Assembly (NCBI GenBank): GCA_016935525.1
Contig: JAFGQU010000016.1
Coordinates: 32,342-96,341, forward strand
DNA from: Candidatus Omnitrophota bacterium
GTDB taxonomy: Bacteria > Omnitrophota > Gorgyraeia > Duberdicusellales > 4484-171
Reading direction: 5' to 3'
DNA length: 64,000 nt
The notes under the pieces are model-generated. The model did no database searches, was not told the DNA's origin, and was given only the letters and a program-made list of their open reading frames with translations. Positions 2,217 through 49,259 of this stretch are shown in pieces; within the stretch, counting starts at the first letter, position 1, and each line of letters begins with the position of its first letter. The position numbers and the translations under genes were made by a program.

Positions 2217-2249
2217 ACGTGTGACTATGTGTCTATGTGACCTTGTGAC
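2217..2249 (+). promoter_or_regulatory. TGTGAC octamer tandem array (acgtgtgactatgtgtctatgtgaccttgtgac)
   Basis: Member of a 6-copy motif family in this window, all following ttttacg; this copy lies at the 3' side of the NYN gene. Confidence 0.5.
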
Positions 2250-2290: not shown

Positions 2291-2926
2291 TTACCAGGAA
2301 CTGGGTTTACGAATTTCTTTGCCGTCGGATAGAATTACCGGATCAGGTAATTTATGGCGCAGGTATTGTTTTTTACTTATAGAAAAAGAGCCGGGAGCTA
2401 ATGAGAGTAATTCTTTATTTTTTCGAGCGAACGGAAAAGCGAATAGTATTTTTTTCTTTGGAAATAATTCAGTACACCTTCTCACGGCCGGGGAGAGATC
2501 GGTGTCGCCGGATATAATAACCACGCTATCGCAGGAATCAGTGAAAAGGATTTCTAGTAATTTTACGCCGATCGCGACATCGGTCTCTTTTTCTTCGTGT
2601 TTCAAGATCATACTTTTACATTGATCACAAAACACTTCTTTTTCTTTAAACCGTCCAAGCTCAACCTTGATACCTAACGATTCAAGACAGGTAATGTAAT
2701 TCTTATGTTTTGTGATTTTGCCGGGATCTTTCGCGCTTAAGTAGTGCGCTAACGCTGAAAAATAGTAGATGTCTTGAAGCCGAGCGTCTTTGCCGAATAA
2801 ATTCAGGTATGAGCTGCAGAGTGATGATAGATTAAGCCATTTTGCGCGATAGCCGGTACTCTTTTTCAGGCTTAAAATGGAATGGTAGACATTAAACCCG
2901 TCGATTAAAAATGTTACTCTATTCAT
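2291..2926 (-). CDS. NYN-domain (LabA-like, PIN-like) putative ribonuclease
   Basis: MNRVTFLIDGFNVYHS ... VVIISGDTDLSPAV matches the NYN/LabA signature; I moved the start to the internal ATG at 2926 (the ORF track extends to 2983 through a hairpin). Confidence 0.6.
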   Translation of the reverse strand: MNRVTFLIDGFNVYHSILSLKKSTGYRAKWLNLSSLCSSYLNLFGKDARLQDIYYFSALAHYLSAKDPGKITKHKNYITCLESLGIKVELGRFKEKEVFCDQCKSMILKHEEKETDVAIGVKLLEILFTDSCDSVVIISGDTDLSPAVRRCTELFPKKKILFAFPFARKNKELLSLAPGSFSISKKQYLRHKLPDPVILSDGKEIRKPSSW

Positions 2927-3098
2927 ATAAATAAAAAAACCTCTGGATCGTAACCCAGAGGTGGCTAGTGAGATAAATCCCACTAGGGATGATTACATTT
3001 AAAATATATAACATTTTACCAATATTGTCAATAATCATGATTTTTCCCTAATATACCAATAACTATCGATTTTTTCACGTGTTTCACGTTTCATGAAT

Positions 3099-3180
3099 TT
3101 GTTGATTTTCATCTATGGTCTATTGACTATGGACTATCGACAGGCTTTCCTGGGCAAGTATCCAATTATACCGCTATTTC
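3099..3180. repeat. Copy 2 of the ~85-nt conserved intergenic element
   Basis: About 90% identical to 1987-2065 with a 9-nt insertion; on the minus strand it sits upstream of the NYN gene. Confidence 0.7.
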
Positions 3181-3226
3181 TCTGTCTGGAAAAGTCAAAA
3201 AATCCCCCATTTCCCCCTCTATTTTT

Positions 3227-3260
3227 ACGTGTGACCTTGTGACTATGTGACCTTGTGACC
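3227..3260 (+). promoter_or_regulatory. TGTGAC octamer tandem array (acgtgtgaccttgtgactatgtgaccttgtgacc)
   Basis: Four tandem TGTGACYW units; lies in the divergent intergenic region between NYN (-) and nadX (+). Confidence 0.55.
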
Positions 3261-3340
3261 TGTATTTATAAACTTCTTGCCCAATATCCCTCTTGTAATA
3301 TAATAAGGTTTACAATATATAGTATTATTAACGTATTTCC

Positions 3341-3374
3341 ACGTGTGACGTGTGACCTTGTGACTATGTGACCT
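3341..3374 (+). promoter_or_regulatory. TGTGAC octamer tandem array immediately upstream of the nadX start (ATG 3384)
   Basis: acgtgtgacgtgtgaccttgtgactatgtgacc ends 10 nt before the ATG; no SD is present. Confidence 0.55.
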
Positions 3375-3383
3375 CGAATAATT

Positions 3384-4187
3384 ATGACTAATAAACTAAA
3401 GATTGGGATAATCGGCTGCGGGGCGATCGGCATGAAAACTGCCGAATATATCGTCACGGAACTTCGTGAGAAAACCGAACTGGTCGGCCTGTACGATAAA
3501 GATCCGGATAAACTTTCCGCGTTAAAAAGGATCGCGTCCGGTAAGATCGTGACCGATCTTGACGGTATTTTGAAAGAAGCCGATCTTATTGTGGAAGCGG
3601 CAAGTAAAGAAGCCGTACGTGACCTTATCCCGCGTATCGTTCAATATAATAAAGATCTTATTGTAATAAGTGTCGGCGCGTTTGTCGTGTATCCCGAAAT
3701 CTTAGAGATGACGAAACAATGTAAAGGGAACATCTATGTCCCGTCGGGGGCGATCATCGGGATCGACGGACTGAACAGCCTGCGGTTCGGGAACGTACGG
3801 TCGTTGACCCTTACGACCGCAAAACCTCCGCGATCGCTTAAAGGTGTGAAAACTGCCGACGGAGAAGCGGTCGAATCGGTAAAAGAAGAGAAAGTGTTGT
3901 TTGAAGGGGATATCATGCAGGCAATAAAACTGTTCCCGCGTAACATCAATGTCGCGGCAACGATATTCCTCGCGTCACGGTATGAAAACGTGAAAGTGAT
4001 CGTAAAAGTGAATCCGGCGCTTGAGAGGAACACGCATCGTATCGAGATCGACGCGGAGGAGGCGAAAATGCGGGTTGAAGTCGAGAATATTCCGTCAAAA
4101 GATAATCCGCGGACAAGTTATCTTACGATCCTTTCGATAAAAAGTATTTTACAGCGGATTACGTCGAACCTTAAGATTGGGAGTTAA
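3384..4187 (+). CDS. nadX: L-aspartate dehydrogenase family protein (NadX-like)
   Basis: [10 protein letters not shown] Rossmann motif at the N-terminus; [11 protein letters not shown] ... [12 protein letters not shown] ... [14 protein letters not shown] resembles TM1643-type AspDH. Confidence 0.7.
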
Positions 4188-4192
4188 TAAAA

Positions 4193-4242
4193 GTCACACG
4201 ACACACGCCCGCCTGTCGGCGAGCTAGTCACATAGACACACG
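4193..4242 (-). promoter_or_regulatory. Inverted-orientation copy of the TGTGAC array (gtcacacgacacacg ... gtcacatagacacacg)
   Basis: Reverse complement of the cgtgtgtcgtgtgac / cgtgtgtctatgtgac units; located just 3' of the nadX stop. Confidence 0.45.
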
Positions 4243-4243
4243 T

Positions 4244-4262
4244 AAACCTGCTTCGCAGGTTG
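4244..4262 (+). terminator. Candidate stem-loop (aacctgc-ttc-gcaggtt) after nadX
   Basis: Perfect 7-bp stem with a 3-nt loop; the downstream sequence is only weakly T-rich, so intrinsic-terminator status is uncertain. Confidence 0.3.
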
Positions 4263-4300
4263 ATTACACAACACATTTTAATTGTATTTTCTTTCTCTTC

Positions 4301-4334
4301 ACGTGTGACCTTGTGACTATGTGACCTTGTGACC
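4301..4334 (+). promoter_or_regulatory. TGTGAC octamer tandem array immediately upstream of uvrA
   Basis: acgtgtgaccttgtgactatgtgaccttgtgacc ends 9 nt before the ATG at 4344; no SD; the ORF-track GTG start at 4329 lies inside the motif. Confidence 0.55.
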
Positions 4335-4343
4335 TGTATAACT

Positions 4344-7130
4344 ATGATCGATACCATAAAAATCCAAGGCGCGAAAGAACATAATCTCCAGAACATCAGT
4401 GTAGAGATACCGAAGAACAAACTGGTCGTCGTGACCGGTGTATCGGGTTCAGGGAAATCGTCGCTCGCGTTTGATACCATTTATGCCGAAGGGCAACGCC
4501 GGTATGTCGAAAGTCTGTCCAGTTATGCCCGCCAGTTTCTTGAACAGTTACAGAAACCGCACGTCGATCATATCGAAGGGTTATCGCCGGCAATCGCGAT
4601 AGAACAACGTACTGCCGGCGGCTCGCCACGGTCGATCGTCGCGACCCAGACCGAAATATACGATTACCTGCGTTTATTGTTTGCCCGGATCGGGATACCT
4701 CATTGTTATAGTTGCGGAAAACCCGTCGTCCGGCAGACCTCAAGTGAGATCATCGAACGAGTGTTATCGTTAGGGAAAGACCATCGTATCCATATTTTAG
4801 CGCCGCTGGTACGCGGGAAAAAAGGTACGTACGAATCGTTGTTTGAGCGGCTTGTCAAGGAAGGGTTTCGCCGGGTACGCGTCGATGGGAAGACGTATGA
4901 TCTGGATGAAAAGATAAAACTCGACCGGTACCGGGCCCATACGATCGAGATCGTGATCGACCGGATAATGGTCGCGCCGAAATATAAACAACGTATTGCC
5001 GATTCGGTCGAGATCGCCCTGAAATATACGCAAGGATTGATCGGGATATACGATGAAACCGGGAATAAAGAACATCTGTTTAATACCCAGTTCAGTTGTC
5101 CGGATTGTGATGTAAGTTTCGCGGAACTCGAACCGCGGATGTTTTCGTTTAATTCCCCGTTCGGTGCCTGTCCGGAATGTAACGGGTTAGGGATGCATCT
5201 GGAGTTTGATCCTGAATTAGTCGTGTCCGACACGTCCCGCGCGTTAAGTGAAGGGGCGATCGAACCGTGGCGGCGCGGGTCAAAAGGGTATATGATGTAT
5301 TATCGCAGCCTTCTGCGGGAAGTTGCCGATGCGATCGGAGTCGATTGGGCACGTACGCCGTTTAAAAAAATACCGAAAAAACTGCAAAAAGTCGTCCTGT
5401 ACGGCGATAAGAACCTGTATATCTGGGATAAACCGTATGAAGGAGTGATCCCGCGTCTGGAACGGGTGTTCCGGGAGACCGATTCGGATTATGTGAAACA
5501 CGAACTTACCCAATATATGTCGAAACTCCCGTGCCCGAAGTGTCAGGGGATGCGGTTGAAACCGGAGAGTCTGGCGGTATTTATTGCCGGTAAATCTATC
5601 TGGGATGTCGTGAAGATGAGTATTGCCGAATGTGACGAGTTTTTTACGAACCTGAATTTATCGTCTTACCAACAGAAAATCGCGTATAATGCCCTTAAAG
5701 AGATAAAGAAACGCCTGCAGTTCTGTCTGCGGGTCGGGGTCGATTATCTTACTCTCGATCGGTTGTCTTCGAGCCTGTCCGGAGGAGAATCGCAACGGAT
5801 AAAACTTGCCACGCAAATCGGATCGGCCTTAAGCGGGGTGATCTATATTCTCGATGAACCGACCATAGGGTTACATCCCCGGGATAATACGAAACTGATT
5901 GAAACGCTTAAAAACTTGAGAGATGTCGGGAATACCGTGATCGTCGTCGAACATGACGAAGAGATGATCGAAAGTTCCGATTGGCTGGTAGATCTGGGGC
6001 CCGGCGCGGGTATCCATGGCGGAAAAATCGTGTTTAACGGTCCCAAAGAGAAGATACCGCAGTCTTCACTTACCGGGCAATACCTGCTCGGTAAAAAACA
6101 GATCGCGGTACCCGCCGCACGGCGTCCGGTGCAGAAAGGGATGTCCCTTACCGTACGCGGCGCGTCCGAACATAACCTTAAACATATCGATATCGAAATA
6201 CCGTTAGGCGTGTTTGTGTGTGTGACCGGGGTATCGGGATCAGGTAAATCGACGTTAGTCGAAGATATCCTTTACAAGACTCTTGCCCGTGAGCTTTACG
6301 ATTCGAAAGAGAAACCGGGTGAGTACCGGTCGATCGAAGGGTTAAAGAATATCGATAAAGTGATCATTGTCGATCAGACTCCTATCGGCCGGACACCGCG
6401 GTCGAACCCGGCGACCTATACCGGCGCGTTTACGTATATTCGTGAAGTGTTCAGCCAGTTACCGGAATCTAAAGTACGGGGATATAAACCGGCCCGGTTC
6501 AGTTTTAACGTTTCGGGGGGCAGGTGCGAAGCGTGCCGGGGTGACGGGATAAAAAAGATCGAGATGCATTTTTTACCGGACGTGTACGTACCGTGCGAAG
6601 TGTGCGCGGGGCACCGGTTCAATAATGAGACGCTGGAAATACGGTTTAAAGGGAAAAATATTTCCGATGTACTGGATATGAGTATGGAAGAAGCGTACCG
6701 GTTGTTCGAGAATTTTCCCCGGATACGGAATATCGTCGAAACGCTCAAAGATGTCGGGTTAGGATATATCAAAGTAGGCCAGTCGGCGACTACTCTTTCG
6801 GGCGGTGAAGCGCAACGGATAAAGTTAGCCGCGCAGTTAAGGAAAAAAGGGACCGGTAAGACTATCTATATTCTCGATGAACCGACGACCGGGCTGCATT
6901 TCGATGATACCCGTAAACTCCTTGCGGTACTGCAACGGCTGGTCGATAAAAAAAATACGGTTTTGGTTATCGAGCATAATATGGATGTGGTAAAATGTTG
7001 TGATTATGTGATCGATCTTGGCCCGGGCGGAGGAAATAACGGGGGCGAGGTGGTCGCCGCGGGCAGCCCTGAAGATATCCTGAAAGCCAAGAGGTCGTAT
7101 ACGGGTAAGTTCTTGAAAGAAAAACTGTGA
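4344..7130 (+). CDS. uvrA: Excinuclease ABC subunit A
   Basis: Two ABC ATPase modules ([23 protein letters not shown] and [13 protein letters not shown], each followed by LSGGE signatures) plus zinc-finger cysteine clusters; start set at [15 protein letters not shown]. Confidence 0.93.
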
Positions 7131-7149
7131 TAGAGAAGATACAAGTTCA

Positions 7150-7179
7150 CCCGTTTGCCCGTTACCCCGTTCACCCGTT
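7150..7179 (+). repeat. CCCGTT heptad direct repeats (cccgtttgcccgttaccccgttcacccgtt), followed by cgtaacgcgg
   Basis: 4 tandem CCCGTTNN units in the uvrA-TPR intergenic region; same family as 238-267, 37924-38012 and 39364-39442. Confidence 0.6.
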
Positions 7180-7215
7180 GGGGAGAAATCGTAACGCGGA
7201 AGAAAATAGAGAGAC

Positions 7216-9666
7216 ATGAATAGGAGATCAAAAAATATCAGAATAGGTGTGAAAATATTTATTTTCGCGGTAGTGATCATCAGTATCGCCGGTATCCATC
7301 CGGTCTTGTGCGCCGATAAAGGCGAAGAAGCGTTTTATGTCGCGGAAAAAGCGTATATGGATAAGTTTTACCAGGCCAGCGGTACTCTGTTTGAAAAGTT
7401 TATTCAGGATTTCCCGCAAAACAACCGGGTCGTGACGGCCCAGCTGTATATCGCTAAATCGCTCTATTTTCAGGAACAGTACGTGAAAGCGCTGAATATG
7501 TTAGAACAGTTAAAACGTGACCCGAAAGCGAAAAGTATCGCCGATCAGGTCGATTATTGGTTAGGACAGGTATCGTTCCAGGGGAAAAATTTTACCCAGG
7601 CGCTCGAATATGCCCAGAAGATCGTCGATACTTATCCTGATTCGCCGCTACGGGGATGGGGATATTATCTTGCCGCGGAATGTTATGCCCAGTTAGGCGA
7701 ATATGATGAAAGTGAAAAAACGCTTAAACTGATCCTGGACGAAAGTCAGGACCAGAAACTTATCGAAAAAGCCGTCCTGGACCTCCTTGAGACGTATTAT
7801 GTCCAGCAAAACTATACCGCGCTCGTGAGTGAAGCCGAACGGTTAGAGGAGCGCCTGGTGACCGATGAAGCGAAATCGCAGTTATTGTTTTATAAAGGCG
7901 AAGGCCTGTACGGCCGGGGAGATTTTGCGTTAGCAAAAGAAGTATTTGAGAAAGGGTTGAAATTCTCATCCGCAGAGAACCTGACCGACCTCTATTTACA
8001 GCGGTTAGGCGATTGCCTGTTCGCTCTGGGGAATGCCGCGCAGGCGAAACTCCAGTACGATAAGATAACGTCTTCCGAGATCAGCAGTTATTCGTTTGTC
8101 ACCTATTATCGTAACCTGAAACAGTGCCAGGATGTGCTTTCAAAAAGCGCGGACTTTATTGCCGGGTTTCCTTACAGTAAATATGTCCCCCAGGTATATC
8201 TTTATCAAGCCGATTGTCTGTATGAGACCGGCCGGATCCAGGATGCGCTCGGTATATATCAGAAGATCCTTACCGAACTGAGTGATTCCTCACCCCGTAA
8301 CGTCATCGATCAGGCTCATTACGGCCTGGCCTGGTGTTACCTGAAAATAGGAGAGTTCAAAAAAGCGATCGACGAGTTCAAAAATACCATCCAGTTTACG
8401 GCTAATTCGATCGTACGGATAAGTTCTCAGATCCAGATCGCCGACGCGTACCAGGAAAAAGAGATGCATGAAGCGGCGCTCCAGACCTATAACCAGATCC
8501 TTAAAGAATACCCTAATAACGTGTATTCCGATTATATCCAGTTCCAGATCGGGATGATCTTTCTCAGGAACGACCGGCTGGAAGAGGCGAAGTTCAGTTT
8601 TAAGAATTTAGAGAAAAACTTTCCTGAATCGAAATTGATCCCGCAGGCCCGTTATTATCTTGCCGCGAGCTATTTTTCCGAAGGGAACTATCCGGCCGCT
8701 CAGGATATTCTCGATGATTTTCCTAAAGATTTTCCCGGGAATAACCTCAGTGATCGGGCGCGGTATCTTTACGGGAAATGCGAGTTTAATCAGGGTAAAT
8801 ATAATGATGCGTTGGATATTTTTCAGAACCTTATTAAAACTACCGTCGATAACGAACTGAAACAGGTGATATGGATCGATACCGCGTACGTGTATATCAA
8901 TCTTAATAAATATGACCAGGCAAAAAACACGCTCGGGGAGTTTACCCAGCGGTTTAAACGGTCCCGTTACCTGCCTTCGGTACTGCTTAATCTCGGCAGC
9001 CTGTATGAACGGGAACGCGACCCGGTGAAAGCGAAAAAATATTATACCGAGATCGTCGAGAACTATTCCGGTCATTCGCTGATGTATGAGGCGAAACTCG
9101 CGTTAGCCCATCTGTCCTGGCAGGAAGGCGATCTGACCGGTGCCAAAAAATATCTTCAGGAATTGATCAACAGCACCAATACGACCGCGAAACAACGGGC
9201 GACTCTTTCTCTGGCGGATATCTACGCTCAAAACGGCGATACCCAGGAAGCGTTTAAACTTTATGAAGAACTGATCAAACTGGACGGGAACTTCAGTAAA
9301 GCGGCCCTGGCAAAAAAAGGGATGTTACTTAAAGAGACGAACCGTTACGCCGAAGCCGTGACTACTATCCGCCGGGCCCTTGAACGCGGGATAAAAGACC
9401 CGCAACTGCATTTCGCGTTAGGGTATTCTCTGGAAAAGATGAATGCCGCCAAAGAGGCGCTCGCGGAATATTTTAAGATCATATATCTTTATGATGAACT
9501 CAAGTATAAAGTAAAAGCGTATTTCCGTATTGCCAAGATCTACGAAGATCAGAACCGCCTGGTCCAGGCCCGGGAGATGTATGAAAAGGTCATCGGCTTA
9601 AACGCGGAAGAGGCGAAGATCGCGAAGTTAAGGATCGAAGAGATAGATACACAGTTGGGGAAATAA
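7216..9666 (+). CDS. Secreted/periplasmic TPR-repeat protein (YbgF/Tol-Pal-associated type)
   Basis: 816 aa; N-terminal signal/TM IFIFAVVIISIAG; many TPR-like helical repeats; sits upstream of exbB-exbD. Confidence 0.65.
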   Translation: MNRRSKNIRIGVKIFIFAVVIISIAGIHPVLCADKGEEAFYVAEKAYMDKFYQASGTLFEKFIQDFPQNNRVVTAQLYIAKSLYFQEQYVKALNMLEQLKRDPKAKSIADQVDYWLGQVSFQGKNFTQALEYAQKIVDTYPDSPLRGWGYYLAAECYAQLGEYDESEKTLKLILDESQDQKLIEKAVLDLLETYYVQQNYTALVSEAERLEERLVTDEAKSQLLFYKGEGLYGRGDFALAKEVFEKGLKFSSAENLTDLYLQRLGDCLFALGNAAQAKLQYDKITSSEISSYSFVTYYRNLKQCQDVLSKSADFIAGFPYSKYVPQVYLYQADCLYETGRIQDALGIYQKILTELSDSSPRNVIDQAHYGLAWCYLKIGEFKKAIDEFKNTIQFTANSIVRISSQIQIADAYQEKEMHEAALQTYNQILKEYPNNVYSDYIQFQIGMIFLRNDRLEEAKFSFKNLEKNFPESKLIPQARYYLAASYFSEGNYPAAQDILDDFPKDFPGNNLSDRARYLYGKCEFNQGKYNDALDIFQNLIKTTVDNELKQVIWIDTAYVYINLNKYDQAKNTLGEFTQRFKRSRYLPSVLLNLGSLYERERDPVKAKKYYTEIVENYSGHSLMYEAKLALAHLSWQEGDLTGAKKYLQELINSTNTTAKQRATLSLADIYAQNGDTQEAFKLYEELIKLDGNFSKAALAKKGMLLKETNRYAEAVTTIRRALERGIKDPQLHFALGYSLEKMNAAKEALAEYFKIIYLYDELKYKVKAYFRIAKIYEDQNRLVQAREMYEKVIGLNAEEAKIAKLRIEEIDTQLGK

Positions 9667-21905: not shown

Positions 21906-22221
21906 TTTACCGTGTACCCGTACATTTTGTTTCTTCTCCAGAATGGTTGAGTTATTTTGAGTATTAGATATAATATACTTTCCCCTTTGAGGGAAGCGTC
22001 GCTCGTGGACAGTATCTGGTGGAGGAAAAGAGACAAAAACTATATACTAGAGACCAGAGACTAGAGACTGAAATTAGCACATAATGGGCCGGTAGTTTCC
22101 CGATATCGCCCGATTTCTAGTAAGCTCATCGGGATCAGCCTGTATAAGAGAATTAAGGTCGCTGACAGTCGGGATTATATCTGTTTTAAGTACAAATGTT
22201 CATTATAGTAGTTATAAAAAT

Positions 22222-22294
22222 GGGCCGGTAGTTCAGTTGGGAGAACACTTCGTTCGCAACGAAGGGGTCGGCAGTTCGAATCTGCTCCGGTCCA
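22222..22294 (+). tRNA. tRNA-Ala (anticodon CGC); CCA not encoded
   Basis: Cloverleaf folded by hand: acceptor gggccgg/ccggtcc with G3:U70, D-stem gttc/gaac, anticodon stem cttcg/cgaag with loop ttCGCaa, T-stem ggcag/ctgct with loop ttcgaat, discriminator A. Confidence 0.85.
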
Positions 22295-22345
22295 TTTTAA
22301 ATAGCGTATAGCGGCTAGCGGATAGCGATTAGTGATAGATTGAAA
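22278..22345 (+). repeat. Direct repeat A: tRNA 3' end (17 nt) plus ~50 nt downstream flank
   Basis: About 90% identical to 22463-22530 (gaatctgctccggtccattttaaatagcgtatagcggctagcg...attgaaaa). Confidence 0.7.
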
Positions 22346-22462: not shown

Positions 22463-22530
22463 GAATCTGCTCCGGTCCATTTTAAATAGCGTATAGCGGC
22501 TAGCGATTAGCGGTTAGTGATAAATTGAAA
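22463..22530 (+). repeat. Direct repeat B: duplicated tRNA 3' fragment plus flank, attR-like
   Basis: The exact 17-mer gaatctgctccggtcca is present without the 5' half of the tRNA. Confidence 0.7.
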
Positions 22531-26424: not shown

Positions 26425-26606
26425 CGGTGAGAGGATAGAGTGAAGAGAATTAGCAATGTCCAATTAGCAATTATCAGTTAGCAATGAGAGAAAGAATAGG
26501 GAGAGAAACTCCGGATTTTAAATTGCTAATTGCTAAATGCTAATTTTGCATTGATCATTTATATTAAACGTGTGATCGGCTTGTTTTCACCTGCGCGGCG
26601 GAGGTA

Positions 26607-27884
26607 ATGAAGAATATGATGAGAGAGAATAAGGCAAAATTGAAGGTAAAGTTTGTGACGCTCGGGTGTAAAGTGAACCAGTATGAGACTCAAGTGTTAC
26701 GGGAGGATTGCGCGCGTCACGGGATGGATGTGACCGAAGAGGCCGCCGATATCTATGTGATCAATACCTGTAGCGTTACCCATCGTGCCGATCGTAAGTC
26801 GCGGGATGCGATTGTACAGGCCCGGCGGGAAAATCCGAACAGTAAGATCGCCGCGGTCGGATGTCTGGCCGAACTGAACCGGGATATGCTCAAACGATTG
26901 GATGTTGAGTATATCCTCGGCCAACATGAAAAATATTCGTTAGGTAACGTGTTGGCCGGAGGCGAGATAAGCGAGATGTCGCCCTGGTCGTTTTCGGTAA
27001 CCTCAAGTGGTAATCACCGGGCGTTTGTAAAGGTCCAGGACGGGTGTGATAATCTTTGTTCGTTCTGTAAAATACCTCATTTGCGCGGCCGGTCACGAAG
27101 CCGGCCGATAGATGATATCATCGCCGAGATCGAACGGATAGAAGAGGATCATCACGAGATCGTTCTCTGCGGAGTCAATCTCAGCCTTTACGGGAAAGAT
27201 CTCTCGCCGGCACAGGACCTGTCGGGTCTGGTCGCTTGTTGTCTGGAAAGAAAGAGGCTCGGCCGGTTGAGGATAAGTTCTCTGGAATCGTTATACCTGG
27301 ATGAATCGTTATTACGGGTTTTGATTCACCCGCGGTTTTGTCCGCATCTTCATCTTTGTTTTCAAAGCGGCGATGACCGGGTCTTACGCGCGATGAATAA
27401 AAAGGAAACAGTTTCCCAGTACCGCGATCTTATCGCTCGAGCGAGAAAAGTAAACCCTGATGTAGCGATCAGCGGCGATATTATCGTAGGCTTTCCCGAA
27501 GAAGACGAAAAAAGTTTTAAAAATACTTTTGATTTCCTTAAGGAGATCAAACCCATGCGGCTGCATATATTTCGTTTCTCGCCGCGGGAAAAAACCGTCT
27601 TTGCCGGAATGCGTCCGGGTAACGGGAAAAAGATAAAAATCCGGTATACGGTATTAAAGGCCGCAGCCCAGAGGTGGTCTTTAGAATATAGCCGCCGGTT
27701 CGAAAACCGTCGGGTAGATGTTATTACCGAAGGGAAAAACGGCGACTATTTTTACGGGTATTCTCAGCATTATGTGCGGGTGCATTTTACCGGTGATGCC
27801 CGGTTAGGTGAAATTACCAAAGTAAAAGTTACCCAGATAAATCAGAAAGGCGTATTCGGGGAATCAATTAAGGAAAAATCCTAA
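26607..27884 (+). CDS. mtaB: Radical-SAM methylthiotransferase, MtaB-like (MiaB/RimO family)
   Basis: MTTase N-domain TLGCKVNQYETQ; radical SAM motif CDNLCSFCKIP; C-terminal TRAM-like domain. Confidence 0.8.
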   Translation: MKNMMRENKAKLKVKFVTLGCKVNQYETQVLREDCARHGMDVTEEAADIYVINTCSVTHRADRKSRDAIVQARRENPNSKIAAVGCLAELNRDMLKRLDVEYILGQHEKYSLGNVLAGGEISEMSPWSFSVTSSGNHRAFVKVQDGCDNLCSFCKIPHLRGRSRSRPIDDIIAEIERIEEDHHEIVLCGVNLSLYGKDLSPAQDLSGLVACCLERKRLGRLRISSLESLYLDESLLRVLIHPRFCPHLHLCFQSGDDRVLRAMNKKETVSQYRDLIARARKVNPDVAISGDIIVGFPEEDEKSFKNTFDFLKEIKPMRLHIFRFSPREKTVFAGMRPGNGKKIKIRYTVLKAAAQRWSLEYSRRFENRRVDVITEGKNGDYFYGYSQHYVRVHFTGDARLGEITKVKVTQINQKGVFGESIKEKS

Positions 27885-27996
27885 ACTCTAAGCACTAAAT
27901 TCTAAACAAATCCAAAGCTCTAAATTCAAAACAGGTATTCGTTCTCAAAATTAGGATTTAGGATTTGTTTTGGATTTAGAATTTAGGGTTTTTAAT

Positions 27997-28027
27997 CGTG
28001 TGACGTGTGACTATGTGTCGTGTGACT
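27997..28027 (+). promoter_or_regulatory. TGTGAC octamer tandem array immediately upstream of rluB
   Basis: cgtgtgacgtgtgactatgtgtcgtgtgac ends 5 nt before the ATG at 28033; no SD. Confidence 0.55.
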
Positions 28028-28032
28028 TGAAT

Positions 28033-28731
28033 ATGCGTTTAAACAAGTATATTGCCCAAAGCGGAGTGTGTTCCCGGCGGCACGCTGATGAACTTATCGG
28101 CGAAGGCCGGGTGAAAGTGAACGGTGAAGTCGTCCGTACGCCGGGGATACAGGTGGTTCCCGGTGATCAGGTGAGCGTGGACCATCAGCCGTTACGGGCT
28201 TCCGAGCTGGTGTATGTGATTATGAATAAACCGGCAGGCGTGACTTCCACGGTAGAGGATCCTTTTGCCCAAAAAAAGATCGTGGATATGGTCCCGTCCC
28301 GACTGGGGAGGCTTTATCCGGTCGGCCGGCTCGATAAAGATTCACGCGGCCTGATCATTTTGACCAACGATGGCGATTTATGCCAGAAGTTGACTCATCC
28401 CCGGTTTGAGATAGAGAAAGAATATGTGGTGTTAGCCGATGGCCGAGTCCCGCAAAGCGCGTGTCTACGGTTCAAACGGGGAATAAAAGACCAGGGAGAA
28501 TTATTGAAAGTGACTTCGGTGAGGATACAGGGATACCGGGGAGATCAAACCGTATTACAGGTGATCGTGAAAGAAGGGAAAAAAAGGCATCTGCGCCGGC
28601 TGTTCGCTTATGTGGGCTATCCTGTCCGCGATTTGAAAAGGGTACGTATCGGGAATATCCGGCTGGGTAATCTGGCTGAAGGGGAATTCAAAATAGTCGA
28701 CAAAAAAATAATATACGGGCTTATCCGGTAA
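28033..28731 (+). CDS. rluB: rRNA pseudouridine synthase, RsuA/RluB family (S4 domain plus PseudoU_synth_2)
   Basis: MRLNKYIAQSGVCSRRHADELIGEGRVKVNG (S4 domain); GRLDKDSRGLIILTNDG catalytic Asp motif; start moved from the ORF-track TTG at 27970. Confidence 0.8.
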   Translation: MRLNKYIAQSGVCSRRHADELIGEGRVKVNGEVVRTPGIQVVPGDQVSVDHQPLRASELVYVIMNKPAGVTSTVEDPFAQKKIVDMVPSRLGRLYPVGRLDKDSRGLIILTNDGDLCQKLTHPRFEIEKEYVVLADGRVPQSACLRFKRGIKDQGELLKVTSVRIQGYRGDQTVLQVIVKEGKKRHLRRLFAYVGYPVRDLKRVRIGNIRLGNLAEGEFKIVDKKIIYGLIR

Positions 28732-36890: not shown

Positions 36891-37013
36891 GATACATAAT
36901 CCTCAGAATCGAGCGTAGAGTGTGTAGTGATGAGTAGTAATAGGGAAACCAGAAATTTCTTAAAAAATGGATTATCCGCTCACCGCTATCCGCTCACCGC
37001 TTGGAGTTAACCG

Positions 37014-37904: not shown

Positions 37905-37923
37905 GGGGAGAGAATGAAGGTTA

Positions 37924-38012
37924 GCCCGTTGACCCGTTTGCCCGTTCAACCCGTTCTAAAAACGGGATAACGGGAATCCCCCTGTGGCGGGAAACGCGAG
38001 CACGGGCGAACC
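37924..38012 (+). repeat. Bipartite CCCGTT-heptad / AACGGG inverted-repeat element with conserved tail (aatcccNctgNggcgggaaacgcg), copy upstream of the cca gene
   Basis: cccgttgacccgtttgcccgttcaacccgtt-ctaaaa-acgggataacggg forms a long imperfect hairpin, followed by a second small hairpin. Confidence 0.6.
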
Positions 38013-41703: not shown

Positions 41704-41764
41704 CCTGTATTATTAAGAAAAAAGGTCGATAAGTACTCATAACCAGGTTGATATTTTTTCTTTT

Positions 41765-41796
41765 ACGCGTTACGCATGTCGCGTTACGCGTTACGG
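41765..41796 (-). repeat. CGTAACGCG tandem repeats (minus orientation) immediately upstream of ribF
   Basis: acgcgttacgcatgtcgcgttacgcgttacggg; same family as 107-137. Confidence 0.55.
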
Positions 41797-42720: not shown

Positions 42721-42833
42721 TCCCACCGATATCCACAACTTGTTGTGTTCCAATGATTTATTTAGAAAAATTCTTGACAGAGAAAAAGAGGGGTATTATT
42801 ATAAATATGTGTAATAAAGTGGAGTGAAGTGGA

Positions 42834-49169: not shown

Positions 49170-49259
49170 TAAATAGTCGCTGGTCGCTAGTCTCTAGTAT
49201 TTAGTGAAAAATGAAATAAAATACCAGAAACCAGAGACCGTAGACTGGAGATTTTAAAA

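Follow-up and report, generated by a model that had tools for sequence, protein, structure and literature searches.

Conserved four-unit TGTGAC arrays before rluB and other unrelated genes in an Omnitrophota genome

The 64-kb stretch of Omnitrophota DNA analysed here (hereafter the window) carries a short tandem array of TGTGAC hexamers immediately upstream of rluB, the gene for an RluB-type pseudouridine synthase. The forward-strand segment at 27997-28035 reads cgTGTGACgTGTGACtaTGTGTCgTGTGACttgaatATG. The T-rich flank of the array (tttaatcg) has counterparts in the other array copies, where it reads tttttACG or ttcCACG. On its 5' side lies a hairpin built from heptamer arrays of another family (27881-27992), which in the folding prediction looks like a terminator for the upstream MtaB-like gene. 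A sequence scan found no sigma70-like site on the forward strand between 27885 and 28032, and the hexamers of the array itself combine a sigma70-compatible spacing with a non-consensus sequence. No GGAG-like Shine-Dalgarno (SD) sequence precedes ATG 28033, the array offering GUGA at most. An earlier note on this DNA had described the rluB array as a fifth copy in the same orientation, 24 kb from the others and directly before a gene without an SD. This holds: the window has five intact four-unit arrays, all on the forward strand, the rluB copy is 23.7 kb from the copy at 4304, and the upstream sequence bears out the lack of an SD. The closeness of array and gene also stands, although the gap measures 6 nt (ttgaat) and not the 5 nt claimed. 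At 28013-28030 the ta spacer of the array opens a five-codon mini open reading frame (ORF), MCRVT*, whose TGA ends 2 nt before the rluB ATG.

An open frame from TTG 27970 runs through the array and would add 21 amino acids to RluB. The earlier note held this start to be wrong and 28033 to be the true one, and the alignment of N-termini that it proposed agrees. We found that 22 of 23 homologues open with M-(R/K/N)-L-N and that no conserved extension of ~20 residues appears among the 23; the 21-residue read-through sequence occurs in none of them, and the lone extended homologue carries unrelated sequence. Read from ATG 28033, RluB has 232 residues and is 100% identical to the NCBI protein of an uncultured Omnitrophota metagenome-assembled genome (MAG), and the NCBI gene model for the source MAG starts at the same codon. 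The longest ORF of uvrA begins at GTG 4329, inside a TGTGAC array, and ATG 4344 gives the canonical UvrA N-terminus, from which the identity of UvrA was judged. TGTGAC arrays systematically mislead start prediction, with both rluB and uvrA affected in the window, and masking them would improve start calls in these MAGs.

We counted 31 occurrences of the hexamer TGTGAC in the window, compared with 13.5 +/- 3.6 in shuffled sequence, and the pattern TGTGWC-N1-2-TGTGWC-N1-2-TGTGWC gives 10 overlapping matches, which make up the five four-unit arrays at 2220, 3230, 3344, 4304 and 27999 (Table 1). This three-unit pattern had no match in 100 shuffles. A profile built from the arrays was searched against the window and added a single copy, at 4193-4243, which is inverted and split; it revealed no other degenerate copies. 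Five of the six copies lie within 2.1 kb, the rluB copy being the distant one. The inverted copy is the head-to-head partner of the uvrA array at 4304 and is interrupted by a 20-nt insertion (4207-4226) that is absent in L062, the locus of a related genome described below. This insertion is a GC-rich mini-hairpin, GCCCGCCTGTCGGCGAGCTA, and similar CCCGCCTG(C/T)GGCGGG motifs occur near 37985 and 39418. The pair (4193-4333) can fold (-50 kcal/mol, z = -3.5) into a hairpin that is followed by CUGUAUAACU without a U-tract, and it does not qualify as an intrinsic terminator; nor does the rluB array, which does not fold. A duplicated module of ~250 nt (1960-2250 matches 3105-3260), present on both sides of an NYN gene, contains the copies at 2220 and 3230. 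The earlier note had preferred a dispersed element to a local duplication, which is right for the remote rluB copy and not for these two. Within the module are a CTATGGn array, a AATTATACC box that is conserved and resembles a minus-strand -10 element, and a TGTGAC array. The NYN-domain gene (2291-2929, reverse strand) lies between the two modules, and L062 has one module and no NYN gene; as far as the sequences go, the duplication together with the NYN gene suggests insertion or recombination at the arrays.

Table 1. Arrays, promoter, hairpin and gene features of the window
Feature	Position	Strand	Details
rluB four-unit array, TGTGAC-g-TGTGAC-ta-TGTGTC-g-TGTGAC	27999-28026	+	28 bases, spacing 7-8-7, nhmmer E = 9e-9
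5' flank of the rluB array, T-rich stretch plus CG (tttaatcg)	27991-27998	+	
Spacer ttgaat from array tail to ATG	28027-28032	+	6 nt, without SD
RluB-type pseudouridine synthase coding sequence (S4 + PseudoU_synth_2, Pfam)	28033-28731	+	start ATG 28033
Predicted ~40-bp hairpin of CTAAACT-type heptamer arrays and their complement, then U-run	27881-27992	+	-42.5 kcal/mol, z = -3.3
Four-unit array	2220-2249	+	inside duplicated module 1960-2250, without + strand gene downstream
Four-unit array	3230-3259	+	17 nt upstream of -35 hexamer, not start-proximal
sigma70-like promoter, TTGCCC-16-TATAAT	3277-3304	+	hexamers kept in L062, spacer diverged
Four-unit array	3344-3372	+	11 nt before ATG 3384 (aspartate dehydrogenase), in predicted 5' leader
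Inverted four-unit array	4193-4243	-	begins 5 nt past the aspartate dehydrogenase stop codon
Four-unit array	4304-4333	+	10 nt before ATG 4344 (UvrA)
Other-family arrays	107-137, 194-212, 233-266, 2000-2018, 3113-3141, 7145-7179, 22046-22069, 22301-22327		
Other-family arrays, continued	22494-22521, 26448-26545, 27881-27991, 36973-37001, 37920-37955, 41763-41795, 49174-49251		

The anatomy of the element was scored on 12 arrays, from the window and four loci of a same-genus MAG. Exactly four units are present in all 12, and the core TGTG[A/T]C is invariant except for one TGTGAT and one TATGAC. The spacers are free, with 1-2 nt (g, ct, ta, tt or tg) and steps of 7 and 8 nt mixed within one array, and the 5' flank ends in CG, usually preceded by a T-run. 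Variants were seen in 8 of 22 inner units (2 and 3) and in 1 of 22 outer units (1 and 4; Fisher p = 0.02). The element is a fixed-length cis-element, (A)CG-(TGTG[A/T]C-N1-2)x4, of ~30 nt. Since all scored arrays have four units, slippage-driven drift of copy number is disfavoured, and the array resembles a site read via its four cores rather than a slippage-prone microsatellite. The spacer ta, present in 11 of the 12 arrays of the clade, makes an ATG inside the array, and in three arrays an ATG-TGA start-stop results (3245-3250, 3366-3371 and 4319-4324).

A scan of one genome per species located, in the same-genus MAG CAZABB01 (labelled Planctomycetia), a locus (L062) that is syntenic with 3197-9015 of the window. 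Nucleotide identity is ~78% over the first 3.9 kb, which holds aspartate dehydrogenase (Asp-DH) and UvrA, and ~68% over the next 1.7 kb; the proteins are 80.5% (Asp-DH) and 85.3% (UvrA) identical. Fourfold synonymous sites are near saturation, with 225 of 456 (~49%) identical, while the four orthologous arrays agree at 127 of 129 positions (~98%) and aligned intergenic DNA is 91%-92% identical. The 16-nt spacer of the promoter at 3277-3304 provides an internal control, having diverged at about half of its positions with both hexamers intact. Because the arrays and the intergenic DNA lie so far above the fourfold sites, the arrays and most of their surroundings are functional sequence and not the outcome of drift. 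This quantitative sign of selection indicates that the arrays are functional DNA under selection in this Omnitrophota lineage. We saw no presence/absence polymorphism of arrays between the window and L062. A TACAATA array and a GTTAACCC array (190-261 of the window, 665-736 of L062) are 94% identical at non-syntenic places, so that dispersal and conservation extend to other array families.

In three of the five forward arrays of the window the tail lies close before an ATG, at 6 nt for RluB, 10 nt for UvrA and 11 nt for Asp-DH. Under our own rough model, which assigns each array a random position and strand in intergenic DNA, the probability that three of five tails fall within 15 nt of a co-oriented start is ~0.004. 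None of these three starts has an SD, and an SD-like tetramer is found at 22 of 47 window genes. Other contigs place array tails 2-22 nt from the ATGs of RtcB, PHP, LplA, PlsX, FabH, HflX and an NtrC-like gene, and the orientation is sense in every case; further start-proximal cases without an SD occur at loci L023, L024, L026, L029, L094 and L213. Copies 19-31 nt from the ATG tend to have GGAG after them. The genes downstream are unrelated by Pfam (Asp_DH, PseudoU_synth_2 with S4, RtcB, PHP, LplA, PlsX, FabH and the HflX N-terminal domain). Arrays beside tRNA genes would favour a promoter over a role in translation; the 50 array-bearing loci include a single tRNA gene, whose array points away from it, so that this comparison favours neither.

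At Asp-DH the arrays 3230 and 3344 stand on either side of the conserved promoter, with their centres ~114 bp apart in the window and 115 bp apart in L062. As this sigma70-like promoter lies upstream, array 3344 is predicted to be within a 5' leader of ~70 nt, and the start-proximal Asp-DH array would be a leader element rather than a promoter. The ~40 nt between the -10 hexamer and array 3344 are nearly invariant against L062, and the leader with its array has no more stable a fold than shuffled sequence (z = +0.8 in the window and in L062 alike). We considered and rejected the array as an alternative SD: strong AAGGAGG sites are found elsewhere in the window, and the match of the array to the canonical 16S tail is at most the 4 nt GUGA. 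An Rfam gathering scan of the window returned tRNA-Ala only; it has no 16S gene, hence no anti-SD to read. The array as a translational insulator with a stop in each reading frame was likewise rejected, as the rluB frame continues through its array without a stop and several array families lack a stop codon.

Beyond the window, the genome collection (one genome per species) and metagenome contigs were scanned; the figures come from the matches listed and are indicative. The metagenome pattern was ACG-prefixed and its matches were dominated by (ACGTGTG)n contigs, leaving about a dozen useful loci. Among the matches listed, TGTGAC arrays are frequent in MAGs labelled Omnitrophota and Planctomycetes. 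A recurrent full form runs from a stop codon through (GTCACA)4, 0-135 nt of spacer with tttttACG as a frequent ending, (TGTGAC)3-4 and 2-26 nt to an ATG; it is found between a NusB-like and a PHP gene (L026), before LplA (L094) and before RtcB (L024). On one metagenome contig (L200 1-2759, rpmF-plsX-fabH) the full form fills each of four consecutive gaps, laid out as stop, (GTCACA)4, ~20 nt, (TGTGAC)3-4, ~20 nt and ATG, and one of these gaps has its spacer flipped. Among the matches listed, 17 pairs are head-to-head and 2 are tail-to-tail. The two arms of a pair share their cores only: spacers are identical in 2 of 46 comparisons and of different length in 19 of 46, and a variant core in one arm has no counterpart in the other. 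Folding of the pairs gives beaded hairpins, in which internal loops separate the core helices, and no covariation between the arms was found in the loop-out register, with occasional matches in shifted registers only.

The closest available rluB orthologue (L115/L116, RluB 68% identical, with the same RsmE-MtaB-RluB synteny) has no TGTGAC array in its MtaB-RluB gap. Different heptamer arrays take its place (L115 1859-1975), namely (TCTACAG/TCTATAG)x6 and CTGAAGA-CCAAAGA-CCAGAGA-CCATCGA, the last unit ending 7 nt before the ATG, so that four NNNNGAC heptads occupy the rluB position. This gap also folds as a beaded hairpin, with 4-bp helices and 3-nt internal loops (-35 kcal/mol, z = -3.5). More than one heptamer family is likewise present in related loci and in array-bearing genomes of other phyla. 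Arrays of the (ACGTGTG)n type, in 3 to >16 copies, were seen in many metagenome contigs (among L118-L237) of 30% to 71% GC, so that heptamers of the TGTGAC type form a microsatellite class of wide distribution, reaching far outside Omnitrophota.

Our preferred interpretation, which we hold tentatively, is that the TGTGAC array is an unstructured platform in the 5' leader for a putative trans-acting factor at translation starts that lack an SD. The array would act in the transcript, within the translation-initiation region. Written as single-stranded RNA it is (UGUGACCU)4, and its four evenly spaced UGUGWC cores, which would not pair with one another, would end 6-15 nt before an AUG without an SD. 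The binder of this platform, which would set the level of initiation, may be an RNA-binding factor with several domains or an oligomeric one, or else the 30S subunit together with S1. Where an inverted copy follows the upstream stop codon, it could pair with the array to give a beaded hairpin of core helices and spacer loops, which would mask the platform and punctuate the polycistronic RNA. Solitary arrays would require a trans-acting reader, because they are conserved without a pairing partner. A role in RNA is favoured by the sense orientation at starts without an SD, the conserved and unstructured leader, the tolerance of spacing, and the precedents of TAACTGA and Nostoc repeats discussed below. 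Single-stranded RNA binders of the TRAP type tolerate variation in spacing, and DNA operators of the MetJ and omega types keep a strict one.

Several observations weigh against a platform in the leader. Arrays 3230 and 2220 are not start-proximal, and 3230 is upstream of the predicted transcription start. The inverted copies are GUCACA in RNA and unusable by a UGUGAC binder, yet they are equally conserved, and the pattern of arms without covariation fits recognition of each arm as double-stranded DNA at least as well as pairing in RNA. Any element in compact intergenic gaps ends up near a start codon. Only 3 of ~25 window genes without an SD have an array, which means that it is not a general SD substitute. 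At rluB itself, the gene is behind the terminator-like hairpin with no promoter detected between, and we can only infer that the array is transcribed, that a factor binds it and in which direction translation is affected; the RNA-binding factor remains putative.

The same observations can be read at the level of DNA, with an oligomeric repressor or a nucleoid-type protein on double-stranded TGTGWC cores. A solitary array would then act on the neighbouring promoter or on the early transcribed region, blocking or tuning it, and flanking pairs would cooperate by looping. We regard such an operator as possible, if somewhat unlikely. Sense and antisense copies are equally conserved, and arms that share cores without covarying are what this explanation would lead one to expect, as is the excess of head-to-head pairs among the matches listed, as if the assembly of the protein sets the geometry. 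The two arrays that bracket the conserved Asp-DH promoter resemble the gal OE/OI arrangement, and the concentration of variants in the inner units also fits. Operators of comparable build are known: the dispersed regulon of MetJ has 8-bp metboxes in tandem sets of 2-5, the omega repressor reads heptads WATCACW (reverse complement WGTGATW), and ParG/parH is a further example. The mixed 7- and 8-bp spacing, however, shifts the helical phase by up to ~100 degrees, the downstream genes are functionally incoherent, and pairs in four consecutive L200 gaps (rpmF, plsX, fabH) would be odd for gene-specific sites. The position of the arrays is also tied to the start codon and not to the promoter, and more than 10 other array families would each need a binding protein of their own.

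The abundance of those other families raises a third explanation, in which the array is a structural or selfish repeat akin to short tandemly repeated repetitive (STRR) or repetitive extragenic palindromic (REP) sequences. Its copies would emerge in intergenic DNA, spread there and be maintained chiefly as arms of imperfect hairpins acting as terminators, mRNA stabilisers or RNase III sites, and solitary copies such as that at rluB would be half-elements with no gene-specific role. Tandem Repeats Finder reports 23 arrays of period 7 or 8 (at least 2.7 copies) in the window, of which 21 fall in the 9.6% of the sequence that is intergenic; shuffled intergenic DNA gives 0.09 where 21 are observed. 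They comprise at least 10 unit types, with ~3-5 units each and mostly about four, and several families form inverted pairs with significant long imperfect hairpins (z from -2.1 to -3.7). This explanation would account for these numbers, as well as for the different families with the same architecture in orthologous rluB gaps, the flipped spacer in L200, the several families in genomes of other phyla and the variable (ACGTGTG)n arrays of the metagenomes. It has more difficulty with the solitary Asp-DH arrays, which are 97%-100% conserved where synonymous sites are saturated and so are not decaying relics. The copy number fixed at four, the non-palindromic single array (unlike REP), the lack of a U-tract after TGTGAC hairpins and the absence of presence/absence polymorphism against L062 also speak against it, and we judge it unlikely.

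An alternative-sigma promoter is less probable again, and we think it distinctly improbable. Units 1 and 4 would serve as -35-like and -10-like elements and the T-rich flank as an UP element, with transcription starting a few bases past the array to give a leaderless or very short-leader mRNA that needs no SD. Hexamers 1 and 4 are 15-18 nt apart in every spacing variant, and outer units are better conserved than inner ones. The short distance from tail to ATG (6-11 nt) at genes without an SD, taken with the GGAG of copies 19-31 nt away, would suit this explanation, as would the position of rluB directly behind a terminator-like hairpin with no sigma70-like site. TGTGAC, TGTAAC and TGCAAC resemble the -35 elements of extracytoplasmic function (ECF) sigma factors, such as sigma-X and sigma-M of B. 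subtilis. Identical -35 and -10 elements would nevertheless be unlike the reading mode of known sigma factors, no ECF-type CGT/GTC -10 element lies near the tail in 8-8-8 arrays, and a constraint to TGTGWC persists in the inner units. From inverted partners, antisense transcription would run into the upstream gene. L200 contains arrays of three units, and Asp-DH already has a conserved sigma70-like promoter and leader upstream of its array.

A broader and very improbable proposal is that short fixed-length heptad and octad arrays form a gene-boundary address code in Omnitrophota and in certain lineages close to them. A paralogous family of nucleic-acid-binding proteins would supply a separate reader for each unit family (among them TGTGAC, GTTNNCCC, ATAGCGG and NNNNGAC), the arrays would replace SD sites, operators and terminators, and TGTGAC would be the most widespread word. 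Finally, that the rluB array is coding sequence, with RluB beginning at TTG 27970, can be dismissed, being excluded by the homologue starts and the NCBI gene model and further opposed by arrays in clearly non-coding places.

In the light of these comparisons, two proposals of the earlier note can be only partly retained. Its dispersed regulon survives as a non-random, selected element in one orientation before unrelated genes; these share no common theme, and the element is not conserved at the L115 rluB. Its global promoter or operator gains from the evidence of selection, which makes a trans-acting reader plausible, and loses at Asp-DH, where the array lies in the leader downstream of the promoter. 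The promoter/operator proposal remains plausible and is too narrow given the many array families and the head-to-head pairs elsewhere.

Some features of the other families deserve mention. Arrays at 1493-1512, 36973-37001, 41763-41795 and 49225-49251 abut start codons. A periodic GAC core common to all families was considered and rejected, GAC chains being no commoner than CTA, TAT or AGA chains. Two near-identical arrays of the ATAGCG type (22296-22340 and 22487-22530), each after tttaa, flank a GC-rich segment of ~150 nt directly 3' of tRNA-Ala (22221-22295), which may stem from duplication of the tRNA 3' flank or be the scar of an insertion. At 42806-42833, GTGGA/GTGAA repeats (AAAGTGGAGTGAAGTGGA) lie directly upstream of an mraZ-like gene that heads the dcw cluster, and we presume that they may be MraZ boxes.

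The TGTGAC arrays extend the phenomenon of start-adjacent heptamer repeats to Omnitrophota. An element so sharply defined, with four units, invariant cores, free spacers and a head-to-head rule, can also be synthesised as bait. To our knowledge, STRR and TAACTGA repeats have been known for decades with no function or binding partner established. A literature search on Omnitrophota repeats and TGTGAC operators returned nothing specific, which is not proof of absence.

Among known systems, MetJ, omega and ParG operators share with the arrays a 7-8-bp period, few tandem units and the possibility of either direct or inverted placement, and TGTGAC resembles WGTGATW, the omega heptad in reverse complement. 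These operators, however, have strict spacing and lie in promoters of a coherent gene set or of the repressor's own operon, whereas the TGTGAC arrays have mixed spacing and precede unrelated genes. Like REP, BIME and REPIN sequences, the arrays are dispersed and extragenic, often occur as inverted doublets between genes and can form mRNA hairpins. Unlike REP and REPIN sequences, a single TGTGAC array is a direct repeat without a fold of its own, and the spacer between arms (0-135 nt) is not conserved. Among the ORFs of the 64-kb window, of which no systematic scan was made, we noticed no RAYT gene.

The cyanobacterial STRR sequences come closer, in that many heptamer families populate the intergenic DNA of one genome near promoters and starts and a binding partner is suspected. 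As a rule, STRR arrays are longer, differ in copy number and serve for strain fingerprinting; the TGTGAC arrays, by contrast, are short, have four units in all 12 scored cases and are nearly invariant between species. In Nostoc PCC 7120, heptamer repeats near start codons alter the expression of recF and recO, and their deletion changes reporter expression (bioRxiv 10.1101/2022.06.06.494920). The TAACTGA heptamers of marine Beggiatoaceae, direct repeats in 2-6 copies immediately upstream of starts of unrelated genes without an SD, also occur in some Cyanobacteria and Bacteroidetes; a post-transcriptional reader has been proposed for them (MacGregor 2015, PMC4679880). The likeness to the TGTGAC arrays is considerable: a few tandem units in forward orientation stand a few nucleotides before starts without an SD, at unrelated genes that include housekeeping genes. 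The differences lie in the unit, TGTG[A/T]C with mixed 7/8-nt spacing and free spacers against an exact heptamer, in the copy number, fixed at four in the TGTGAC clade, in the phylum, Omnitrophota, and in the conservation measured between species. Head-to-head pairs are common for TGTGAC (17 among the matches listed), and a single indirect repeat is recorded among 170 TAACTGA repeat sets (PMC4679880). By its sequence, the TGTGAC array is an analogue of TAACTGA and not a member of its sequence family. Functionally and positionally the TGTGAC arrays are of the same kind as the TAACTGA and STRR repeats, and they are set apart by their four-unit size, their design of cores with free spacers, their pairing rule and their phylum.

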